From Negaprion brevirostris (Eukaryota), in NCBI GenBank assembly GCA_030324005.1, contig JARDVH010000059.1:53468817-53532816 (forward strand): 64,000 bases of DNA, given 5' to 3'. The notes beneath the pieces were generated by a model. That model was given only the letters and a program-made list of their open reading frames with translations. It was not told where the DNA came from and searched no databases. The translations under genes were made by a program, and so were the position numbers. Below are positions 2,831 through 63,480 of this stretch, one piece after another. Position 1 is the stretch's first letter, and every line of letters begins with the position of its first letter.

Positions 2831-4384
2831 ATGACCCTCCATATTGAATACCATATTGAATGTTTTTCACTATGCTAAAAATGTGGATATTTGTTCACAA
2901 TATATGAATTTATTTAACTCTTATACAAAAACCAATCTGTGGTCTATTGACTATGAGTGGCAATAGTCATTGAGTTGCTGAAACTCTGATAATGACTCAC
3001 TGGGAAGATTGATCAAAGGGATTCATATAAAATGCATGATTCCCCATCGACTGATCATGATGTATTTAACTTTATATACTCAAAATTTTATGGTTGCAGC
3101 TACGTACTTAATAAAAAAAAGTGTTGATATATAACCTTTTGATTTGCATGTTATGAAATGAATCTGCTATCTATGACAAAAATATTTAACTCTTTTCACT
3201 TGCATGTTGAATTTTTCAAAAAGATGCAAATTCTGTGTGAGAGATTCAAGTGCAATGGAATTCCTAATCCCGGTTTCATTTTCTGCGAGATCTCCATTTG
3301 CCCAATGGGAGTTGTAATTCTGCACTTGTTCCAGATTTTCCTCTTTGAGTTGGGAATTGCAAGCCTAGCCAAATACCAATGTCTGCCAGTGCCTGCCCAT
3401 GCTGACTTTATCATGAGGTGGTATGAACAGACTGGGGTGACGCCATTACTTCTGGAAGCAGGCCCAAGGTGGGAACAGGAGCAGAAGGGAACCAAAGTGG
3501 GCAGGATAGAAGACCCACCCCCTTTCACTGGAACAGCAACCCAATTTTGACGTGAATATTATGAGACACTGTCCTTCGCTCATTTGTTCTGATGGGGAGA
3601 GAAGGCTAGCAGGTTGCTGCTAACTTGAATCCAGGAACCTGTTGCCAAGCATCCATATTGCTGTTGTCTGAACTAATTTAGTTAAATTATCTGTTAAAGG
3701 CAAGTGACATTTTATACTCTGTATCCAAACCATCTGAAAATAAATACATCTGACCTTGTTGAATGTTTTTAAATTTTAGTTCTTTGTCATGAGAGTATTT
3801 TAGCTGCACTCTGGAAAACAATCCAATCTTCTGTTTTGAAGGGGACATATTTCACCAAACTATTGTTTGTTCGTATTTTTATAAACAATTCTACATCATA
3901 CAGACTAAGTTTCTGTGGCAGGTGTATTATTTCCATGTTGATGGAATTAATGCTTTGTACAAATTGTATTGAAAATCATGGCATAAATCTATTTGCATGT
4001 CAGCTAGAAGGCAGTTATTAAATAAATTAATGAAAGGACTTATTTGGATTCTGGAGAACTATAATTATACAACAGCACAGTTTCACCATAGTATCTCCCT
4101 CAATATTATTTTTGGCAAGCACTTGTTCTAAACCAAATTAGTTTAACCCCATAAAGATGGCTGCTGCTCCTGTGCTGTATAAAAGAAAGATGTTGGAAGT
4201 CAGAAATTCAAGTGAGGGGTCAGAAAACAGAACAGTCAAAATTAGATTTCTGTTTTGCAATAAACAAGCATCTTTCCAATATTTCACTGTTATTTCTTCA
4301 TATTGTTAGCTGTTTTCTTGGATTGCTCATGTTTTTAAAAATAGTGCTTGTGAATACAAAATAAGGGTTTAATACTTAATTGCA

Positions 4385-4615
4385 GAGTTTATTACAGCGC
4401 TCAGACCTGGAGTTATTACAGCACTCAGTCCCAGTGTTATTAGAATGTTCAGTCTCGCAGCATCATTACAGAACTCTGTCTCACAGTCATTACAGTGTTC
4501 AGTCACTGAGTCGTTACAGCATTCATCACAGAGTAATTACAGCACTCGGTCAAAGTGTCATTACAATGCTCAGTCACAGAGTTGTTGCGGCACTGCCACA
4601 GAGTCATTACAGCAT
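4385..4615. repeat. Degenerate ~24-bp minisatellite, about 10 copies
   Basis: Units such as gagttattacagcgctcagacctg, gagttattacagcactcagtccca and gtgttattagaatgttcagtctcg. The array abuts a CR1/HE1-type tail at 4600-4650. Confidence 0.8.
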
Positions 4616-5417
4616 TCAAGGAGGCTGTTCAGCCCATCAAATCTGTGGTGACCTTTTTACTTATATTTTGCCTTTTCCTTCCATTAGGTGGTGTAGATCC
4701 TTGTAGAATTCAGTATCTCAAAAATATAACATGTTTAGATCACTCCAGTAGTACAATCACTGGTTTGTGCTTAAAAAAATGAAATGTATTCTTTTTGAGC
4801 TGCTTTGTTGATATTATGATATATATGATATTTGACTTTTAATGTTTGCACCCTTTCTCAAAGTAGCGTTTAATATAATTCAATGTGGTTTTTGTTCTTG
4901 CTTTTACACTTACTTTAAGAGTGCAAATTAAATTTAGTATGTCTACCAGGTTGCTACAGATCTTGAATTAGGTGCATTTTTTGCATTTAGCAAAATCTCA
5001 GAAGCATGGACCTATATTAGTGTTTGATGCATAAAAACTATATGCTAACTTAAGCTTTGTAAATTCAACAACTACAATAGGTTGCATACTTAATTTAAGT
5101 CTCATTGCTTAAGTATTAACAAATGGAAATATCAAGTCACATGTCTAACAATGTAATTTATGCAGATGTTTGATACTGATCTTGTATTTTGTTGAGCTTT
5201 TCTGATATCTCAACATTATATAAACAAACAGACCGCCTCACTTTGGATCCTTGGGTCTCGCAAAGTTTTACAACAATCGTGGAAAAATTAAGGATTGCTT
5301 TAATGAATTCATTTTTCTGAAAAGGAAGTTCCACATCCCACATAGTCCAACCTGTGAAAGAGACTGATTTCTGTTTTCTAAATCGTTTATCCTTTATCCT
5401 TGGTTTAATTTATTCAG

Positions 5418-18880: not shown

Positions 18881-19342
18881 TCTGGGAGAAAGTGTCTGGT
18901 GGACATCCAATTTCCTTGCCAATCTCTCCAATGTCCTAAACATTTAGTGCACATTTTCTCATTTGGTCATTCAGTCTTCATTCTTTCACAGGACAGGTTC
19001 TCTTCTATCACTTCCTGCAGCTCCCAAGCACCTCCACTTTAAGAGATGCAGGCTGCCTTGAAATAATTCTAGTTACATAATTGTGCCATAAGGACTCCTG
19101 CTGATATGCACAACAAAGACAGCTGCATTCAGCCACTTCATAAAGCAGCATAAATTTATTGTGCTGCTTACAATACAGTGAAGAGGCATGGATAAATCTC
19201 ATACTGTGTGCCAGTCCTAACAAACTTTGCCCCATAATCTTTCAAAAATGCTAACATTGCATCCTCTATAAAATGTCCACCTTTGGCACCTCATTTTTGA
19301 ACAATATTGCCTCATTTGGTGAAGCAACGCAGAAAACAATTT

Positions 19343-19609
19343 TGTTTGTGGAGTTTTCACATTCTCCCCATGTCCGCATCAGTTTCCTCCGGATGCTCTG
19401 GTTTCCTGCCACAATGGATTGGCCATGTTAAATTGCCCCTTAGTGTCCCAAGATGTGTAGGGATTAGCAGGGTAAATGGGTGGGGTTACGGGGTAGGTCT
19501 GGGGGTGGACCTGGTCTTTCTGGTAGGATGGTCTTTTGGAGGATCGNNNNNNNNNNGTGCAGACTTGATGGGCTGAATGTTCTCCTTCTGTACTGTGGTG
19601 GTTCTATGA
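19343..19609 (+). mobile_element. HE1-type SINE, 5'-truncated
   Basis: tgtggagttttcacattctccccatgtc...aaattgccccttagtgtcc...gacttgatgggctgaatg..ttctatga, antiparallel to 18231-18545. Confidence 0.85.
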
Positions 19610-19917
19610 TAATACAGTAAGTGCACAATTCGTTTTACTCAGAAAATAACAGCCTTCACAATGATACACTGTTACAAAATAACATGACCTTCAAGTGACT
19701 GAACAACTTGAATACCTTTTTGAGAAAAAAAAATACAAGTGAAATAAACAGAGGAACAATGAGTGAAATTCCAGAAGCAAAGAGAAAAGCAACATACATT
19801 TATACTTTAAGCACCATTACTGATTTCTATTCGTACATAATAGAGGCCAGGATCATTCACTATGGATTTTCATATTTGTATAAGGAAATGTGACCCTGCA
19901 TTCTGATGACAACAAGT

Positions 19918-20120
19918 ATTGCTTCTGGCTAAGATCAAGCATCAGATCAAGCCCAAGATGATGTGCAATGCCTTTTCTTGTCAGCTTGGATCTTGTGTGT
20001 CTTTCTTGTGTACCATGAATTGGATTAAATTTGAATTCAATTTTTGAAGCAAGTAAGAAGTTGAATTTGGGTCTGTGCTGTCCATTATGCATATTGGCTT
20101 TGTAACTTTAAGAATACAGT
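19918..20120 (+). repeat. U2 snRNA-derived dispersed repeat, copy 1
   Basis: attgcttct..ggctaagatcaag, ttcttgtcagcttgga, Sm-like aatttttgaagcaag and gctgtccat, in the order of vertebrate U2 (ATCGCTTCT..GGCTAAGATCAAG..TTCTTATCAGTTTAA..ATTTTTGGAGCAGG..CCGTCCAC). Confidence 0.65.
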
Positions 20121-22600
20121 AAAATTTAAAAAATTAAACTTCAAATTAAAATATGAGAACTTTGAGAAACAGGGAAGTTCTTTGGTGGTCATATCTTCAA
20201 TCAGACAAGATCAGAAGGTCATTGTGAGAGATTCCTCTCCACATTGCAGCACAGTGAGGTGTACAAGAGTGAGAACACATCCAAAAGTGCAGTTATTGAA
20301 GAAATCTCTATTCTTCACAGGTCAACCATCCAGCCCCCATCCCCAATTACAGTTTCACTATTTTCCTCAATTTCTTCACTCTCCCCAGATCAGTTTGACG
20401 TAAATATTGCAAATGAACTTGGTAGTTACTGTTCTTCAAAATCTAATGAGAATTTTATCATTTTAATTATTCTTTAAAACATATGCTGTGGTCATATTTT
20501 GCATTACCTTCTTATTGACTGTGAATTGTGAGCCTGGTAATGCCAATAAAGTGCAAAACAGAATCAAGGCTCATTATGTCACTTAATTAACAGGTTTATT
20601 CCAATAAACAGCTTTGTGCTGTGTCAGTAAAAGTAGTGTACAGAAACTTAGTTGACTACAATGGTTATGACAACAATATTAGATTGTGTATTTAAAATTT
20701 ATAATCATAAACATTTCTTTGTAGACCAGCTAGTTCTGATGGACTTTACTGATAGTAAGTTGCATTCTTTTGATCTTGATATTTTCAATAATGATGATTT
20801 TTCAGCTATATTTGAGTAATACTAAGGTCACGTTGAAAACTCAAACTGAAATATGATGTTGGTAATTAGATTGACTTAGAAAATTCTTGATATATTCCTA
20901 CTATAAAGCATCAGAGATCTGCTGATTTCAGCAGTTGCATTTTTGGAAATATATGATTTATGTAGAATTTAGATGAACAGCCAAAACAACCCATTAAAGT
21001 AAATATTAATCCATTTGTTCATGAAATTGTAACGCAAAGGCATTCCCACAACAGAAGTGTACTGGCAATTTTCTTGACAGTTTACCTGTTTGGTGTAAGG
21101 GTGATGGAATCTTGGGTTTAAAGCATTATTGATATTTTTACTCAGCATGTTTTGCTACTTCCTGTAGAATAATGAGTCATATTATATTTGGAAGTTTACA
21201 GTTTGTAAGTACATATTTAAACCATACAACCACAGATGCTTTTGTTATCACTGGTGAAAATGTGGATATGTAATAGATTTAGATGGTCCCACACTTCTGG
21301 ATGATAACGATCGCTCGACCATGAGTATAAAATACACTAGATTTAGAATAAGTTTAAAAACTGCTGAATTCCATTTGTATTCAAAAATTGTGCATTGAGT
21401 TCAAGAAGTTAGATTTTATTATTGCATACAAAACAGAGCAGCATGAAATACGTGCAAAGGAAATGACTACAATTTGCAACAGATTGCTTTAGCTGCTGTT
21501 TAGAGTTTCATAGCAGCTATGTGGGAGACATGGAATATTCAAGCTCAAATTGTAGCACACCAACAGAGGAACAAGTGAAGGCAAGTAAACTTTTAAAATA
21601 CAATGCCTTTAAGGTTTAGTTAGATATTGATTGATGCTGAAGTGACTTCCTTGAATGAAGAAGGGGAATAGTTTGCACTTATAGCACTGAATTTTACCAG
21701 TCTTCGAGGAATGGGCTGGGAGTTGGAGTGCNNNNNNNNNNCCTGTGAGAAGCGAGGGGGAGCATGTTGCCTTCCCACCTCCATGGTATTTTGCCAATGG
21801 TTGGGAAGATGTAATGCTCCAACTCTACCACCCAAGAAGCCAATTGACCCAATTAAAGGCCTGTTGCTGCCATTTTCCCAGTGATGGTTGGGTCCTCTGC
21901 TGTGTGAACTCTGCCTCCCTGTAGATTGGGGAGAGGGAATCCCACCTAATCGGTATTCTGTAACCCACAGAGGTTGNNNNNNNNNNNNNNNNNNNNNNNN
22001 NNNNNNNNNNNNNNNNNNNNNNNNNNNNNNNNNNNNNNNNNNNNNNNNNNNNNNNNNNNNNNNNNNNNNNNNNNNNNNNNNNNNNNNNNNNNNNNTTAAC
22101 TTGTTGGAAGGGTAGCCTTTTCCCATGGTGTGCTTTCAGTTGGGTTCTTTTCTGGGCGAATGGTTTAAGAAAATGGTTTGTATTTGAGAAGTCAGTGCCA
22201 CACAGCCAGCTGAGCTTTACTGCTGTGGCTATACAGTCTGTAGATAAAGCTGTTAAGGGTCAGAGCTGCTCAAGGGAGCTAAGCAACTTTTCACCTTGCA
22301 AGCTGTAAGCCACCTGGAGTAGATTTCATAGGTGCACCATGATTTGTATACGAACACAGGAGAGAGACCCTAATGATGTGCAACAGGATGATTCTTAATT
22401 CTGCACATTGATTGTAATCCAACCATGAACTAAGTTCTTGTACTAAAAGCTTTTTTCCTGGATTTGGAGTTGGTGTTAATCTTTATAGTCAAACGAGACC
22501 TGAGGCCTCCCAATTTGGGGTCAAATGAGCTTGCATGAACTTCCATCCTTGTGAGTTAGGCAAAGGTAGCCCTTGCAATGTTCTTTGTCTGAGTTATATA

Positions 22601-22748
22601 GGTTAACACAGTAAGAAGTCTGACAACACCAGGTTTAAGTCCAACCGATTTATTTGATAGAAATCAAATAAATTGGGTGGACTTAAACCTGGTGTTGTCA
22701 GGCTTCTTACTGTGTTTAACCCAGTCCAGCGCCAGCATCTCCACATCA
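22601..22748. mobile_element. Penelope-derived fold-back, ~58-bp arms with 4-nt loop
   Basis: ggttaacacagtaagaagtctgacaacaccaggtttaagtccaaccgatttatttgat-agaa-atcaaataaattgggtggacttaaacctggtgttgtcaggcttcttactgtgtttaacc. Probable TSD ttata(t/c)aggtta at 22594-22605 and 22753-22764. Confidence 0.75.
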
Positions 22749-23170: not shown

Positions 23171-23889
23171 TACAATTTCAAAGGTCTGTCAGATCAAAAT
23201 TTTCAGCCATATTAATATAAACTAATGTAAGATTTCACAAAAGGCCATTCTTGTTGAACTTTTGAGGTCTTATAATTATTATTGGAAAACTGTTAGGAAT
23301 GCAATTTGTAGGAGTAAATATAACCAAGGTCTGAAATGTACTACAGTTCTGAGAAAATTTATCAGCAGAGCGATGCACATTGAACTAGAAGGTGTGAGCA
23401 GCGTACAACAAACCTTGATTTTGCAGTAAGTGCTTTGCTTAAACTATACAACGGGATCAAATAACAAATCATTTGGTACAGTGTTATTTTGTCACAACTA
23501 TTACTACTTTCTTCACACAGATTATAGTAAATGTAAAGAAACAATATTTAAATTCCATATGTAAGTGGGTATTCCCAGTATTGAGTTGAAATGTATTTTG
23601 CTGCAGCAACAATATCCAGAAAAATGCACAAGAACAAATTTTAATTTTAGTGAGATTGAGAATAATAAAATGATGGATCCAGAGTTACTTCTTCCCCAGC
23701 TCTCCCCCAAGGCCCTGCAGCCAATTTCTCCCCTCTTTCCACCAACGGGGAAAGTGGAAGAAAATGATTATAAGCTGTGATTAGTAATATCATAAGAAAC
23801 ATAATTACTAAAACTAGGAGCAGGAGTCAGCAATTCAGCCCCTCAAACCTCCTCTGCCATTTAATACGATCATTATCTTTTCTTAACAG

Positions 23890-23977
23890 TGTCCTTGATA
23901 GTCCAAACCGTCTAGATGAAGAACATCGATTGATAGCACGGTACGCAGCACGACTTGCTGCTGAGGCAGCATCTTCA
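23890..23977 (+). CDS. DTNA: Alpha-dystrobrevin constitutive syntrophin-binding exon
   Basis: taacag|T ... TCA|gtgagt, 88 nt, phase 2-0. Encodes [29 protein letters not shown]. Confidence 0.97.
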
Positions 23978-25809: not shown

Positions 25810-26095
25810 CAGTGCATGAGGCGGCATTAAAATGGAGTTGTGGAGCACAACCCACCCTTCCCAAACTGTTCATGCCTTTTTTTTTAACCACTTGGTATTT
25901 TGTTCCTAATCAAAAAAGCCAATTAAGTCCAGTCAGAGTCCCTACATAAGGGATAGACCAGATCCAAGCTGACAAGACAAGATAGACATTCCATCTTGTG
26001 CTTGATCAACACAAGATTCAAGCTGACAGCTTGAGGCATCACCACCCTTCCTGGGCTAGATCTGAACTTCATCTTAGTCAAAAGGCCAAGGTGGC
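25810..26095 (-). repeat. U2 snRNA-derived dispersed repeat, copy 2
   Basis: Minus strand ttggccttttgactaagatgaag versus U2 TCGGCCTTTTGGCTAAGATCAAG, then two copies of ..tgtcagcttg(a/g)atct, then ggcttttttga and tgctccacaactcca. Shares the non-U2 insert gatcaagc.caagatg with copy 1. Confidence 0.65.
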
Positions 26096-27438
26096 TTTAA
26101 AAAAAAATTGCATCAGGTGAAGCCTTGGTTTAACATCATTGGCCACCCTGATTCTTACTCTACGAACGCAAAACCATGATCGTAGGCATCAGCAAGGTCC
26201 AGTGCAATGGGTTAGCCGCATCCTCTGCTTGATCATTGAGTCTCCCCTGCTAGCTTCATGCCGTCCTCATTTTAGCTCATACACAGCTGGGTGTCTGCCC
26301 AAGTCAAGTGGGACCTAATTACATACCGAACTACGTCCCTTGGACGCATTTTTAACTGCAGATGGGCAATGGTATGTTGTTTCATATCTTAACCTATGCA
26401 GGGAGGTTTTGATGTAACTCTAGTCTGACTCAGACTTCAAAGCTACCTTGTTTATTCTATATTCATTACATACACGATGAGCTACTTGGTAAGCACATCT
26501 CTCTTGAGTACATACTATTCCATTTCCTCTACAGAATCTCGAGCACGTGACTGCTGATGTCACTGTTACATCATGATGCACATCACTAATTCATTACCAT
26601 AACTATTAACCTATTAATGGTCTGCCCAGTCCCCAAAACCTCCCAATGAAACCTGTCAATAGAATTTTTAATGATATTCTTGTGGAACACCTCAGGAGCC
26701 CAATCCTCTGAAGATAGACTTGCCTGACTGCTCGGGACTGTCCCTTTGGGTCCCCAGTGGCAGCCTCCTGTCACCCAAAGTATGGCTTACAAAAGCATGG
26801 CCTGCACATCATTCCCATGCAAGATTTGAGATAAAGATCAATCTGAGTTGTTTAAGTAAGGTCAAGGAGTTGAAATCTCCCAAGCCCATGCTGCAGGGAA
26901 CCAGGAGGTTTGCTGATCTCAATTTCATTGCCTGAAATCTTAAGATCTCAAATGTCATTTCAAAAACTGCTCTTCAGACAGGTAACAAATTTAAACAAAC
27001 TTCTTTATAGTCTCTCATACCATTCTCACTGCAGCATCCTTGCCGCTTTAGTTTGTCTTAGTAAAGTTAAATCTCTCAAACCTTTTTGTTGCAAACAAAA
27101 CATTCTNNNNNNNNNNAACCCTTGCATTGAAATGAAAATGCTGTGCTGATATCACAACTGAGTGACGGATCCATAATCAATCCCATTTTTGATTCTAATC
27201 TTCTTCATTTGATCTGCGGTTAAGGAGCACCCTTAAAAATGGAGAATATTTTCGGTGCATTCTTGTTTTAGTACGCTCGAGGTGCTCAAGTAAAGAAATC
27301 AGCTTTCTTGGTGATAGATCTGTGAAAGAATACTAATTGTGTATCCAACATGGATGAGAAAAAAAGGGTTCTGTGATTATCTGTTTAACAAACAAATGTT
27401 TGATGCAACCTAAAATAATTTTTTTCTCAACTTTCTAG

Positions 27439-38733: not shown

Positions 38734-38881
38734 GTAAAAAGTCTGACAACACCAGGTTTTCGTCCAACCGATTTATTTGACAGTAAACTCACAAGCTTTC
38801 GAGGGGACACCCTCTTCGTCAGGTGAATGGAGAGTTCTGGCCTCGGACAGAGCATATACAGCACAGACAGTTTAGAGATTA
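38734..38881 (-). mobile_element. Penelope-like element terminal repeat
   Basis: aagtctgacaacaccagg..tccaaccgatttatttga family sequence. The segment atatacagcacagacagtttagagatta recurs at 40425-40452. Confidence 0.7.
38787..38828 (-). ncRNA. Minimal type I hammerhead ribozyme (Penelope-type)
   Basis: Minus strand AUUCAC-CUGACGA-A-GAGGG-UGUC-CCCUC-GAAA-GC-UU-GUGAGU: CUGANGA and GAAA core, 5-bp stem II, stem I, palindromic AAGCUU in place of stem III. Confidence 0.75.
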
Positions 38882-39825
38882 AAACTCCCCCAGTGTAAAC
38901 TCAGTCTCTGATTGTAAACCTCCCCTCATGTAAACTCAGTCACTGAGAGTAAATGTCCCCCACTGTAAACCCAGCCACTGAGAAAACTCTTCCAGTGTAA
39001 ACTCAGTCTCTGATTGTAAAAATCCCCCAGTGTAAACGCAGTCACTGAGAGTAAAATTCCCCCAGTGTAAACTCAGTCTCTGATTGTAAAACTCTCCCAG
39101 TGTAAACTCAGTCTCTGATTGTAAAACTCTCCCACTGTAAACTTAGTCACTGAGAGTAAAACTCCCCAGTGTAAACTCAGTTTCTGGGAGTTAAACAATC
39201 CCAGTGTAATCTCAGTTACTAGAGTAATCCTCCTCAAGTGTACACTCAGTCACTGAGAGTAAAACTCCCCCGTGTATACTCAATCTAAAATTGTCCAACT
39301 CACCCAGTGTAAGCTCGGTTACTGAGAGTAAAGCTCCCCCAGTGTAAACCCAGCTGTTGAGTGTAAAACTTCCCCCCGCTGTGCAAACTCAGTCACTGAG
39401 AGTATAAGTCCCCAGTATAACCCGAGCCACTGAGAATAAAACGCTCCCAGTGAAAACACAGTCTTTGATTGTATTCCTCCCCTCGTGTAAACTAGGTCAC
39501 TGAGTGTAAACACCTCCAGTGTAAACTCAGTCACTGCGAGTAAACCTTCACCAGTGTAAACTCAGTTTCTGATTATAAACCTCCCACAGTGCAAACTTAT
39601 CACTGAGAGTAAAACTCCCCCAGTGTAAACTCAGTCACTGAGAGTAAAACTCCTCCAGTCTAAATTCAATGTCTGATAGTAAAACTCCCCCAGTGTAAAC
39701 TCAGTCACTGAGAATTAACCTCCCCCAGTGTAAACTCAATCACTGAGACTTAACCTCCCCCAGTATAACCACAGTCACAGAGTAAAACTCCCCCAGTGTT
39801 AACTCTGAGAGCGAAACTCCCCCAT
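38881..39825. repeat. 35-bp minisatellite, about 27 copies
   Basis: Consensus aaaactcccccagtgtaaactcagtcactgagagt, with a recurring variant ending actcagtctctgattgt. Confidence 0.95.
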
Positions 39826-57710: not shown

Positions 57711-59355
57711 ATGGGAGCTAGTGAACTTCAAGTAAAATCCCCCAGAAGGGAACACCAGCTTACTTTATGTTTCACAATTACGGTCAGTCATCAATCAGTG
57801 ACCTGCAGAAATGGGTAGAATGGACCAAGAATAAGAATAAATCTTTCCCACCTGATGGTACATTCAACCTCAATAGAATAACCTGTCTAAGAAGAAGGCC
57901 TTTTGAACAGAGATCCTGGGGAGGAAGGGGGAAAAATAAGGTCAATTGGTCAGCTTTTGGAGATTGGAAAAGGGAGGCAGACCGTAGGCGTACAAAAAGT
58001 ACTAAGGAGGATCAGAGGGAGAAGAAGACAGTCGATAAAGTTATAAGTCGAACAGAAAGTTATTATCAGCTGATGGGTAGAAAGAAAGGTGGCTACAACC
58101 CTATAGTGCTCCTCCGAAACACGAGGACGATGATTACCTATCATTTCGGGTTTCACCACCCTATTAGCAGTACAATGAGCCAAAAGAATCAGATCCCGCA
58201 GCTTCTCCTGATTTAAATCAAGGAAATATTGTTGTCTACCACACTTGACAACAGGAGGCACTTAGAGGAACTCAGCAGGGAGTGAAAAGAACTCAGTGGC
58301 TCCTCAGTTAGATCCCCCACCAGATATTTTTAGATATTTTCTTAGATATTTCCCCAGTCCCCAGGGTGGAAAACCAGGCAGCTGTGGCTGTGGACCGATC
58401 CTGAACCCCATCTAAATTAGGGTCCATTTTAGATAATCTCCCAGAACCCAGAGTGTAGCTGGACACCTCATTAGATAAACTCTGCACCATAGTCCTGTGC
58501 TATGAGCATAATGGACATGGAGATCTTGTTAAAAGGCTGGTTAAAAGAATCAGGATTTAAACAACTTGAGGGAAAATTCAAGGGATTTCATGATCACCGG
58601 ACAAGAAATAATCACAGCCCCACTACACAGCCCACTAACCATGATATTTGACCAAATTGTTGGAATGCGCGGACTGAAACCTTCCCTAAAAAACAAATTG
58701 GGCAAAAATTATGGAGATCACCCAGAAAAAAATGATGTGAAAAGCTGTATGGTTGGGAGAAATTATGGATCAGTGTTCAGGCACGACTATAGGACAATAT
58801 GAAGTTCCATTGTTAGTGCTATCATTAATGGCCTCAGACCTGAACTCAGAGACCCACTTAAATTACTTCACCTTGGATGGCGCCAGAAAAAAACTCTCAG
58901 AGTTGTTGTCCATCCTAAAGGATCTGGAGGAGTGAAATAGAGAAAATAAGGGCAAGCCTTGCACCCTTGTGGGGCAAGCCACCAAACCTGTGATAGCATT
59001 TCAACCAACGCACTCCTGCCCCCAGGGCCTGCCACAACACCGTCAGTACCTCAAACTAATAAGGGTAGGGGTTATGGACCTCGAAGAGGAAGACGAGGCA
59101 GAGGCTGGGGTCAGGGAAAATGAACTCAGTCATTGCTATAATTGTGGCCAGGCTGGTCACTGGACGAGAAATTGCCCATCACAGCAGCCATCTGGGCAAA
59201 CGTGGTAATACGGGCATTATAATGAAACACAAGCCCAGGTTCGCACCAGACCTCGGGCAGATTTTACTATCCAAAGGCCGTGGGGAAATGCTAATAATAG
59301 GTATCAGGAGGGAGACCAATACGGCTTAAAATAGATGCACTCCTATTCCTCATGA
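57711..59355 (+). pseudogene. gag: Endogenous retrovirus gag (decayed)
   Basis: ATG GGA start (MG), MA-like KWVEWTK..FPPDGTFNL, single zinc knuckle CYNCGQAGHWTRNC at 59134-59175. Multiple stops and frameshifts. Confidence 0.85.
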
Positions 59356-62270
59356 CTCTCTCAGCCTAGCCCTGACCAACTGTGTATCTGCAGGAAAGAG
59401 CGAAGAACTCATTATAGTTGATACAAGAACTACATTTTCAGTCTCGACCAAAGATTATGCAAATGGGATTCGAAGTGTGCCAGGACAGGCGTCTATATTG
59501 GGACTCTCCGGGACTTCACAAGCAATGCCATTCTCAGAGCCATTAGATGTTCAGGAGACTAAGGATATGCACACCTTCCTACTATCAAAAGACACCCTGT
59601 AAACCTATGCACTCAGGACTTGCTCTGCAAAGTGCAAGCTGTGATTAGTTGCTCTGAAAAGGGGATAGGGGTCGAGGTTCCCCACTCCAAGTTACAAATT
59701 CCCCTTTTATACATGTCTGGTGTAATTATACACATATAAGTAAGATTCACAAACACCTTCTGGGATCCCTCCATTTGGGCCTCACAAGCAGCTTCCAGCT
59801 ATCAAAAGAATTTGCATTTGGGTCACTGAACTTTGAAAATACATTGTATGGCCTTTTACAATGTCACTGGTATTGACTGGGAGGAAAGTGTCTTTTACAA
59901 GCAATTTTTACAAATCTCATCCTGGCTGAAGGTTCAGACTATTCTGGTGAGACCAGGGGGTGTCACTGCAATAGTCATCCTGCCACGCAGGCACAGGAAC
60001 TATTCCGAATAGTGCCCCGCACTGTACATTGGCCATTACTGAAGGATGGGTGCCCCAGGATTTAGGACTAAGAACCAAGAGGATGAAACGTTTAGAAGTT
60101 AATGAACACGGGCAAATGCAAAAGTACACTCTTGTGCAGTATGAACAAGGACAAGGGCTTGGTCCACCCCTCCACGAACCCCTTAGTTTTGAGGCTACTT
60201 TTGAAATGTGGGATGCTGAATCTGGTCATTATCTTCTCCAGCCAGAACTAGAGAACCTGTTAGACAAGGTCCCCGAAAACCTATGGGCCAGTCACCTTGA
60301 TCACGTCCGGCGAATGTTAACTGCACAACCCCACAAGGTTATTCTCAACCCCTCAAGACCATTGCCACATAAACCTCAGTACACTCTGTCGGTCTCAGCC
60401 ACTCAAGGGATTGCACCAGTAATCAAGTCATTACTGGATCAGGGCATCATAATACTGGCAAAAAGTCCCTGCAACACACCAATTCTCCCTGCTCAGAAAC
60501 CAAATGGGAGGTGGCAATGAAGCAGTTTTTCTTACATATCCAGTTGCTCCCAATCAAGCAACTATTCTTACTAGTATTCCTGCTGGGTCTCCCTATTTCA
60601 CAGTCATCGATCTCTTCGCCTTTTTCTCTGTACCTATACATCTAGACTCTCAGGTCCTTTTTGTGTTTACATGTGAAGAATCCCAGTATACATGGATGAG
60701 ACTCCCACAAGACTCTACTGAGAGCCTCCCAATTTTCTCCCAATGCCTGAAGAGAGATTTAGAAGACATAGTGTTACCTCAACCCTGACACAGTATTTAG
60801 AAGACCTTCTATTTGCTATTGTCACACATCACTGCATAGTTGAAGTTGCAGCATTACCAAATACTTCTTCTGCCCAGTAGGCAAAGTTGTTTGCTTTAAC
60901 CCTAGCATGTATTCTGGCTACAAGATGAATTATCAATATTTACGCTGACTTATGGTATGCATTCGGAGTAACCCATTGAGCAGATTTAGAAATACCAAAG
61001 GTACGTAACCTCAGCTGATTGGGCTGATAACCTCCTACTTGCCAGAAAATTACAGTTATTAAATGCTTAGCATATACCGGCCACCAAGATGAAGTTGCCT
61101 TGAACAATGGAAGGGGTGACAGGGCTACATCAAGGGCCAGCACTCCAGGTGTCTGCTTACATCCTTAAATGCACTAAACTCATTGATCCAATGCCCATAA
61201 TTAATGTTGTACTGGCCTCACAATCGCAGGCCAGCACTAAGGAGTTGTTAGCCTGGGAACAGGAAATGGGGATTCCCCATGATGGCTGCGTGGTGGCATC
61301 CAGATCCTTATTCCCATGGATTGCCCCCAGTGTTCATACTTTCACACATGCGGGCAAAGGGGGGAATGGAATATTTTAAAAACATGGTATTTCGGCAATT
61401 GAAAAATAACTCAGTGAAAGATCTGTTACCTGTCAAACCATGAATCTTGGAAAAACAGAAAAAGTCTGCCCCCCCATCCAAATCCAACAGGATCCTTGGT
61501 AAATCTGTAAATGGATTTCACTGAATTACTCCTCTATATGGGATGTATTCGTAAATGTAGATATACTTTCTATAGGATTGAAGCCTTTCCATGTAAAAGA
61601 AATGATGTTGCTAAATATTTGCTAAAAGAAATTGTGCCACAATTTGACAAGTACAGCTTTCAAGTAATGGATCAGATTTTGCCGGGACAGTTATGAAAAA
61701 AATGTGCCAAGCATTGCAAATCAAACAGCATTTTCATTGCAATTATCACCCACAGTCAGCTGGATTGGTAGAGAGATATAATGGAATTCTGAAGAACAAG
61801 CAGGCAAAACTGTGTGCCAAAACTCGACTAAAATGGGTTGAACTGTTACCCCTAGCATTAATGGTAATGCAGTCAGCAACAAACAGACAACTGGGATATC
61901 ACCACACGAAATCATCATGAGGCGCCCCCAACATTTGCCTTTTCCAGCACCACTTACTGTTAAGCAGATGAATATCCACAGAATGGAAGAAAAAATGCTA
62001 AACTATTTTATTGCTTTAACAAAATGTTTCCATTCCCAGGTAAAGGAAGCTCAGACTGATTCCACAGAAGGGAGATAGCACAGCTTAGAGCTGGGTGACA
62101 TTGTTCATGTGTAAGTGTTTGAAAGAGAGAATAGTCTTCACCCAAGATTTGAAGGCCCTTATCAAGTTTTGTTGACCACCAACACTGTGGCCAAGATGAA
62201 GAAAAACAGACATGGATTCACACATCTCACTGCAAGAGGGATCCATGTCCCAAGGAAAAGGAATCACCAG
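59356..62270 (+). pseudogene. pol: Endogenous retrovirus pro-pol (PR, 2H domain, RT, RNase H, IN; decayed, RT partly deleted)
   Basis: PR: IVDTRTTFS (59420) and PVNL..DLLCK. RT: SPCNTPILPAQKPNGRW, FTVIDL.AFFSVPIH, QYTWMRLPQ, QYLEDLL. RNase H: SAQ*AKLFAL, NIYAD..YAFGV. IN: HTFTH..C..C, MDFTE, YHPQSAGLVERYNGILK, FEGPYQVLLTT. Confidence 0.92.
59833..60095 (+). pseudogene. 2H phosphoesterase (CNPase-like) domain within ERV pol
   Basis: IHCMAF (59842; HCT>HCM by one C>T), ILVRPGGVTAIVIL, then after a frameshift SAPHCTLAITEGWVPQDLG (60020). Parallels CNPase LHCTT..LFVTP.T.GA.V.L..AHITLG. Confidence 0.7.
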
Positions 62271-62299
62271 CCTCACCGATGAAGGAAATTGACATTAAG

Positions 62300-63480
62300 A
62301 CTATTTTCTTGTGATATTCATGATACCTGTATTGTCTGAATTGTATATAAATACCTTCAAGCACATGTCACACATCTATGTCAAGGATATCAACACTTTC
62401 AGGCTGTTGGGTGTTTACACATGTATGGATACACTCAAAATTCCTTTAAGACCAATTCTTTTCAATGAATCAGAAACAGCAGAATGGTGGCTGAATCAGA
62501 AAAAGGTCACCCAAAATCAGAACAATAGTATTTCTTCAGGACAGACTAAGGACAGCAAGGAACATTGGGAATCAGCTGGGTATAATATGAATCAGTTTAA
62601 GGGGTGGTTACAACCTAATTATGACCTTTCTCAGAAATCCTTACGAACATCATGGAATTGGGGGACCCAATGGGACAATTTGTCTGCTCAGTATACAGAA
62701 ACAAGTCAGTGTAACCATTCACTAATCCTCACATCTGCAAACACTATAACTGAAGGAAAAGTTTACAAACCTTAAATGGAAATACTTTGTGTGTGGACAC
62801 AAAGCATATGCCTAGTTGCCATTAAATTGGGAAGGGGCATGTTACCTGGGATATGTAATATCTATCATTTCCCTCCCTAACACATCAACTCCTTTATCGG
62901 TCTAAATGAGCCCTTACAAAAACAACAATTCCTTTCGATCCTTTATCCCTCTGTTGGAGTGGGATTTTCCTCAGTTGAAATCGTAAAACTGGCTAAATTA
63001 CTAAAAGTGGTGTCAAATTATACTATAAAAGCTATAAAAGGGTTAAGCAATAAGATGACAGCCATAAGAATAGTGACTTTGCAAAACAGGATGGCCCTAG
63101 ATTATTTGTTAGTTGAGAAAGGCGGGACATGTGCTATGATAGGGTTTGAATACTGCACATATATCCCTGACCATTCTGAGGAAACAGGTAGCTTGGTGGA
63201 CAATATCTGTAAAGAGGTTAAGAAGTTTAAGGAACCAGATTCTTGGGGAATTTTTGGTTGGGCGAGGGGATGGTTAGGTCAGTCCCTAGTACATGAGTTA
63301 ATTATATTTTGGCCATTATCTTTACTCTATTTGCCATGATGAAGTATTGTTGTGTACAGCTTGGAAATGCAGTAATTCCAGGAGCTGCAACCACTATGAT
63401 GACAGTAACAACTCCAGAAGTCTCAGAGAATGTAGTAGAAAAGGAAACGGAGAAAGTTTACAAGATTTGGCTAGATTGAA
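62300..63480 (+). pseudogene. env: Endogenous retrovirus env, gamma-type (decayed)
   Basis: CWVF (CWxC remnant, ~62405), furin site RSK* (~62898), immunosuppressive motif LQNRMALDYLLVEKGGTC followed by degenerate CX6CC (CAMIGFEYC), then a hydrophobic TM segment. Confidence 0.9.

Follow-up and report, generated by a model that had tools for sequence, protein, structure and literature searches.

Dispersed shark retroposons built from U2, U1 and U4 snRNA sequences and their probable spread by a Tx1-type LINE

In this work, the element at positions 19918 to 20135 (copy 1) of the window, which is the whole 64-kb stretch of Negaprion brevirostris DNA that was analysed, was confirmed to be ~215 nt long and derived from nearly the whole U2 snRNA. 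The data support its membership in a dispersed A-tailed retroposon family with a common derived structure (F1). This family is probably one of at least three retroposon families built from U1, U2 and U4 sequences, spread by a Tx1-type LINE and transcribed from snRNA promoters. A second element in the window, copy 2, belongs to a longer chimeric family (F2), and a third family (F3) was found elsewhere in the genome. The features of copy 1 are as follows.

19918..20135, plus strand: copy 1, family F1, ~215-nt near full-length U2 derivative with a hairpin insert and an A/T tail (alignments, HMM)
19918..19939, plus strand: U2 head (U2 nt 1-31), from which copy 1 alone has lost 9 nt
19944..19993, plus strand: 50-nt hairpin module replacing the branch-point site
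19970..20115, plus strand: U2-derived body (U2 nt ~40-169; body alone, 0/500 shuffles as high)
20039-20047, plus strand: Sm-like T run in the body
20096..20135, plus strand: F1 3' end and A/T-rich tail (conservation stops in the A/T run, 30 aligned loci)

The Rfam U2 model had no match at E<=1 anywhere in the 64-kb window, and a local scan of copy 1 with it reached 12.9 bits (E 2.6; gathering score 46). Because this model fails to score copy 1, the genome's own U2 (L031), U1 and U4 genes were used as the snRNA references. Rfam scans were rejected as the sole proof of a U2, U1 or U4 origin of either copy, since they were unsupportive whereas the comparison with the own genes succeeded. Copy 1 aligned with the U2 gene over U2 nt 14-169 with a score of 97.5, a value reached by none of 500 shuffles (39.8 +/- 5.8). 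The F1 consensus scored 135.5 against the same gene, and the F1 body without its head still scored 108, with shuffles at 32.4 and 0/500 as high. The collinearity with nearly the whole of U2 that the preliminary description had proposed is thus borne out, and the Rfam check that it had suggested gave no significant match to copy 1. The name "U2-headed" is right about the head and too narrow for the rest, as F1 is U2 along nearly its whole length. The proposed start at 19918 was retained, and the proposed end at 20120 was moved, as the tail reaches near 20135.

The layout of F1 is U2 nt 1-31, a 50-nt hairpin, altered U2 to nt ~169, and a tail. The 30 fetched F1 loci aligned from the U2 head to the A/T tail and diverged beyond it, and all 30 carried the same derived insert and tail. 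The insert that had been proposed at the branch-point recognition sequence does take its place, this sequence being intact in 0/30 F1 copies; the length first given was ~25 nt, and the hairpin module has 50 nt. The left arm of the copy 1 hairpin resembles a repeat of U2 nt 24-31, and the right arm is altered U2 nt ~45-62. The Sm-like motif reported earlier stands for copy 1 and does not describe the family, in which the canonical Sm pattern was present in 5/30 and missing in 25/30 copies. By the branch-point site, the Sm site and the Rfam gathering score, copy 1 and F1 fail as functional U2. The HMM match on copy 1 extended over 19922-20124 (E 6e-59, with a model whose alignment includes copy 1), its identity to the F1 consensus was 87.6% with CpG excluded, and no target-site duplication was recognisable around it. 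Copy 1 is an old, dead insertion with no sign of present function. Mean identity of the F1 copies to their consensus was 91.2%, a value biased upward by their being the best matches to one query. The three family consensus sequences are 219, 376 and 310 nt long, hence all below 500 bp, and all are A-tailed.

Both copies are probably intronic, judging from a single exon that lies between them:

23843..23950, plus strand: dystrobrevin exon between copy 1 and copy 2

Several other features were seen in the window. Just upstream of copy 1, at ~19340-19610, lies a common short repeat that seems to resemble the tRNA-derived shark SINE HE1. A long palindromic repeat at 22597-22728 was matched by unrelated miRNA models under their cut-offs; similar sequence occurs in L102, L196 and L286, and it is therefore a common dispersed repeat. 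Tandem arrays were found at 38875-39805 (35 bp x 27) and 4383-4618 (24 bp x 10), and at 57725-63339 on the plus strand there are broken ORFs whose translations resemble, by eye, pieces of retroviral gag, pol and env.

Copy 2 lies on the minus strand with the following parts.

25877..26254, minus strand: copy 2, family F2, U1, U4 and U2 pieces, two hairpin modules, A tail (alignments, HMM match 26256-25892)
26178..26252, minus strand: U1-derived head (U1 nt ~10-95, with an 11-nt deletion typical of F2)
26122..26146, minus strand: U4-derived piece (U4 nt 23-47)
26067..26087, minus strand: U2 head fragment (U2 nt 11-31)
25960..26063, minus strand: two tandem hairpin modules (26063-26014 and 26008-25960)
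25877..25956, minus strand: U2 stem-IIb-like segment, T run, and tail with an A run
25869..25876, no strand: target-site duplication, 3' side, 8 bp, perfect
26255..26262, no strand: target-site duplication, 5' side

A second, diverged copy of the same element had been placed at 25810-26095. The shared insert is indeed present there, and the element is not a diverged copy 1 but a longer F2 element at 25877-26254; its F2 relatives extend ~165 nt further upstream than the limit first given, and 25810-25868 is unrelated flank. The F2 consensus runs in the order U1 nt 5-95, U4 piece, U2 head, two hairpins, U2 stem-IIb-like part and tail. Its positions 5-84 matched U1 nt 5-95 with 82% identity (E 2.5e-15), and its U4 piece was identical to the genome's own U4 gene at 23/25 positions (E 9e-6), with 0/2000 shuffles scoring as high. 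A second U1 piece was hinted at by single F2 copies and was not significant in the consensus. Mean identity to the F2 consensus was 90.4%.

The third family, F3, was discovered via the search for the Keno site described below. It opens with U2 nt 1-40 and a leader, after which come a second U2 head, two hairpins and a tail. The leader is homologous to the U4 region of F2 and, taken alone, no longer matches U4 (325/2000 shuffles as high). With 96.0% identity to the consensus among 30 copies, F3 is the youngest of the three families. Pieces of U1 and U2 have been added at the 5' end repeatedly: F3 itself has two heads, extra U2 heads were flagged in 5/90 copies, and further cases were seen beyond that set. 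These re-added U2 heads stop at variable points (nt 34, 35, 42, 49 and 52), which points to template switching and agrees with it at least as well as with insertion into U2 genes. In a separate observation, the SINE copies at L013, L048, L064, L197 and L215 each form a tandem with a further member of their superfamily.

The copy number is high. With copy 1 as the query, 2,890 candidates were obtained in the 2.69-Gb genome, and the 40 that were scored comprised copy 1 itself and 39 others at 79-83%. The F2 search with copy 2 gave 1,088 candidates (40 scored, 30 fetched), and the F3 search gave 3,103 (40 scored). A 16-mer of the right hairpin arm had 3,106 exact matches in the genome and its control had none. 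The first 30 of these loci by position, all on one contig, were fetched; 30/30 matched a family consensus, and the 29 distinct ones were 14 F3-like, 11 F1-like and 4 F2-like. Moreover, 120 evenly placed 10-kb stretches (941,853 non-N bases) contained 6 copies, with 0 in the reversed control, and extrapolation from this sample suggests a genome-wide total of ~13,000 copies (95% range 5,000-29,000). At L297:7022-7748, an assembly gap has the same privately mutated element start at both edges; it is likely a false duplication, and such gaps may slightly inflate the counts.

The copies are dispersed. Among 90 query-selected copies, the 200-bp flanks gave 20 and 11 similar pairs, compared with 11-51 among random stretches, and no preferred target repeat was found in these flanks; the end of an abundant SINE lay directly upstream in 2/90 copies against a background of 0.7%, which is too few to use. 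Many copies are 5'-truncated. Full-length copies start at the snRNA start with no common upstream extension: 6/30 F1 and 13/30 F3 copies begin <=3 nt from the consensus start, and 10/30 F2 copies begin <=7 nt from it. A loose search for target-site duplications was rejected as not clearly above its control, and a position-constrained search was used instead. In the same 90 query-selected copies, the latter found duplications at the strict cut-off in 6 copies versus 3 of 870 mismatched pairs (p 4e-5), leaving 84 without one, and at a looser cut-off in 10/90 copies versus 19/870 control pairs. Its tail filter misses the duplication of copy 2, which was seen directly, as was that of L097. The proposal of an amplified family instead of independent U2 pseudogenes is therefore upheld by the shared derived structure, the high copy number and the unrelated flanks. 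In the checks proposed earlier, the copy number came out high, A/T tails are present, and some copies have duplications, copy 1 not being among them.

Contigs of four other related organisms (4/4) enter copy 1 from the unique flank on both sides, and the most distant of them differs at ~8% of sites; among the contigs listed, none covers the whole stretch. Each related organism had 2,293-2,720 contigs on the copy 1 stretch, with the depth heaped on the element. As copy 1 occupies the same site in the four organisms, it predates their splits and the family is common to them. The ages of the families correspond to about 9% and 4% divergence from consensus.

A link to a LINE was found at U2 nt 39. 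The pattern of an A run joined directly to U2 nt 39-58 gave 4 matches at 3 loci, with 0 in the control. Two of these are LINE 3' ends (L137 and L139), one is an F3 copy, and the fourth is a bare T/A run that lies within U2. The LINE has a reverse transcriptase domain, a zf-RVT domain in its homologues and a piece of an APE-type endonuclease, for which the Pfam match (PF03372) was 20.4 bits (E 5e-4), under the curated cut-off of 24.5; the GDFN, RID and SDH motifs visible in this piece are presumably features of the APE type. From these domains, we take the LINE to be a putative Tx1/Keno-like element. The closest named relatives of its protein are from sharks, Cetorhinus (74%) and Hemiscyllium (70%). 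The LINE is mostly dispersed: among 20 loci, only 1/14 located tails was followed by U2, so its targeting of U2 is weak and it is not strictly specific for U2 genes. An F3-type element directly followed the LINE tail at 2/20 LINE 3'-end loci (p ~1e-5), at the SINE loci L015 and L195 a LINE tail immediately precedes the element, and the truncated LINE copies L137 and L181 bear U2 heads. A 10-nt terminal motif is common to the LINE and, among the families, only to F2; a hybrid tail pattern designed for a LINE with an F1-like tail gave 1 match, which was itself an F1 copy. Because the LINE and one SINE copy abut U2 at nt 39 and the two occur in tandem, the Keno-like Tx1-type LINE is likely the mobiliser of the snRNA-derived SINEs. 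The condition named earlier, that the segment might be an internal part of a known element such as a Keno/Utopia target flank, did not hold, as the LINE appears as the likely mobiliser and not as a container. A divergent U2 variant is arranged in tandem in units of 492 bp (G000 C157:37.35 Mb; L036-L038, L289), and at L137 and L139 the LINE is inserted at nt 39 of related units.

With regard to transcription, the families have no Pol III head; their heads are U1 and U2, and internal T runs are present. The tRNA, 5S and 7SL models of Rfam did not match copy 1 or copy 2, and with their U1/U2 heads the families do not have the make-up of a classical Pol III SINE with an internal promoter. One locus (L288) contains the U2 upstream region (89%), U2 nt 1-40, an F3-like leader and a piece of the LINE endonuclease region that is 86% identical to the LINE at L137; this piece had no Pfam match, so its identity rests on DNA similarity. 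The locus is broken, and its downstream U2 part was not found. From this one locus, transcription from captured snRNA promoters is plausible. The U2 upstream region had 4 matches in the genome, only one of which continues into SINE-like sequence and is broken, and the upstream region of the variant array gave 8 matches, none with a SINE. An intact source gene, in which a U2 or U1 promoter precedes a complete SINE, was not found, a negative result that is weak as the snRNA arrays look under-assembled. No U2 promoter precedes the F3 copy at the junction with U2 nt 39-110. This copy either inserted into a truncated U2 pseudogene or was retrocopied from a read-through transcript of a source in a U2 gene. 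Furthermore, at 4/12 U2 loci (L039-L042), full-length U2 retrocopies carry ~40 nt of the downstream flank of the gene and none of the upstream flank; therefore 3'-extended U2 transcripts have been retrotransposed. Two further observations were made at U2 loci. The U2 genes L032, L033 and L034 score highly, have one additional A near nt 30 and differ strongly in their 3' half; they may stem from a parasite or contaminant whose DNA entered the assembly. At L298 (G000 C115:~0.50 Mb), the U2-promoter/LINE locus adjoins an exon with a DQHAAHER motif, which we take to be MutL/MLH3-like.

The five versions of the hairpin module have alike predicted folds. At the consensus level, 8 outer pairs are invariant, distal pairs are mixed, and 3/5 inner pairs of the core have double changes that preserve pairing. 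Across 28 modules from actual copies (5-6 for each version), 90.6% of the cells pair and 6/17 pairs change on both sides; this pair count is reached by 42/500 shuffles, and the cells do not represent independent events. The consensus RNAs of the three families fold better than shuffles (z -2.5, -6.0 and -5.2), and copy 1 itself does not (z -0.2). The pairing changes in the modules are modest evidence that selection may have acted on the source RNAs, and palindrome-templated repair could yield the same pattern.

We hypothesize the following origin. A U2 gene would have been changed at the Keno cut site (nt 38/39) or beside it, with the loss of the branch-point site and the gain of a hairpin. 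Tailed RNA made from the promoter of this altered gene would then have been reverse-transcribed in trans by the Tx1 machinery, and template switches onto U1, U2 and U4 snRNAs would have supplied new 5' pieces, so that, together with module duplication, F2 and F3 could arise. The element has no promoter of its own, and occasional landing in U2 genes would give it back an external one. A more specific proposal can be made only tentatively, namely that the sharks hold a long-lived superfamily independent of the crocodilian one, promoter-less and drawn from three spliceosomal RNAs, in which Keno-like re-entry at nt 39 borrows the U2 promoter and a selected hairpin, standing where the branch-point site was, serves as the signal for the LINE. 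If this were true, there would be a general route from Pol II snRNAs to SINEs wherever U2-targeting Tx1 elements exist.

The same families could also have been produced from sources transcribed from unrelated upstream promoters or introns, the snRNA heads being scars of template switching and the landing in U2 incidental. We regard this as unlikely, and several observations are nevertheless in its favour: the variable ends of the U2 heads (nt 34-52), the U1 and U4 pieces, which are impossible from insertion at the U2 site, the failure to find an intact promoter-linked source copy, and the known human LINE-1 chimeras with U1, U2, U4, U5 and U6; upstream promoters are likewise proposed for SINEU in the available text of Kojima 2015 (PMC4494074). 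On the other hand, full-length copies start at the snRNA start, although a switch to the 5' end of an snRNA gives the same result, and at L288 the F3 leader directly follows the U2 upstream region.

It is very improbable that the copies are piled-up processed pseudogenes of a variant U2-like RNA gene that is functional and in which the host selects for the hairpin. The better-than-shuffled folding of the consensus RNAs and the compensatory pairs in the hairpin would fit such a gene, but the branch-point site is lost in 30/30 and the Sm pattern is missing in 25/30 F1 copies, several structurally different families succeed one another, copy 1 folds no better than its shuffles, and a conserved single locus was not seen. 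Independent U2 pseudogenes, or passengers in a larger element or segmental duplication, have practically no standing left. Ordinary U2 retropseudogenes do exist in the genome and most copies have no clear duplication, yet the same derived insert and tail in 30/30 aligned F1 loci and the unrelated flanks, with 5' truncations, A tails and some duplications, speak against both, and they are refuted by these aligned loci, the 16-mer count and the flanks. An origin from U1, U2 and U4 snRNAs with spread by a Tx1-type LINE and transcription from snRNA promoters thus remains our preferred reading.

The closest known systems are the SINEU families, which the available text of PMC4494074 describes only from crocodilians, with none detected outside them, and for which it leaves open how a promoter-less SINE is transcribed. 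In structure the shark families belong to the same class, being short, A-tailed, true families with a U1/U2 5' part and recurrent 5' addition. According to that text, SINEU-3 resembles F1 in being short, A-tailed and made from U2 alone, with a U2 5' piece of ~32 bp, a break in the branch-point region, more U2 and then a non-U2 3' end, and also in having no internal promoter and an inferred Tx1-type mobiliser. However, SINEU-3 has a deletion of ~50 bp (PMC4494074), whereas in F1 an insertion forms a hairpin and the U2 sequence continues to nt ~169. The hosts are of different classes, and 90% of SINEU-3 copies are associated with Mariner-N4_AMi (PMC4494074), whereas no common target repeat is seen for the shark copies; the flanks of the 90 copies are no more alike than random ones. 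SINEU-1 and SINEU-2 share with the shark families the U1+U2 chimeras, recurrent U1/U2 5' addition, partial duplications, snRNA heads also on Tx1 elements, occasional duplications of ~10 bp and thousands of copies (PMC4494074). In contrast to what the main text of PMC4494074 describes, F2 bears a U4 piece, the common core of the shark families is itself U2-derived (the hairpin module), and a link to U2 nt 39 is seen. By the comparison of structure, the shark families work like SINEU, and they are probably of independent origin.

The literature searched, which leaves out most subscription papers as well as Repbase and Dfam, yielded no account of snRNA-derived SINEs from cartilaginous fishes, and it is quite possible that the shark families are already catalogued in Repbase or Dfam. 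The literature used for comparison also includes the available parts of PMC5381603 and PMC8143547. Section 6 of PMC4640811 states that the U2 flank 3' of Utopia starts at nt 39, identical to that of Keno, and the partner LINE of the shark SINEs has the APE-type endonuclease and the U2 junction at nt 39 in common with these elements. Compared with Keno and Utopia as presented there, the partner LINE is mostly dispersed (1/14 tails followed by U2), and the shark SINEs are non-coding and have at most a short terminal motif in common with the LINE. In mammals, snRNA pieces are likewise joined 5' of a retrotransposed RNA in chimeras with LINE-1; these arise singly, each in one event, according to the accessible part of bioRxiv 2025.02.02.635956, whereas the shark chimeras became amplifying families. 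The shark families could confuse the annotation of U1, U2 and U4 genes, and, being of different ages, they could be used in shark phylogeny as presence/absence markers. The question of how such SINEs are transcribed becomes testable in long-read shark genomes. A second and probably independent origin beside that of the crocodilians, with about ten thousand copies, a member that bears U4 and a link to the Keno cut site, suggests that SINEs arise from snRNAs repeatedly wherever these are handled by Tx1 LINEs.
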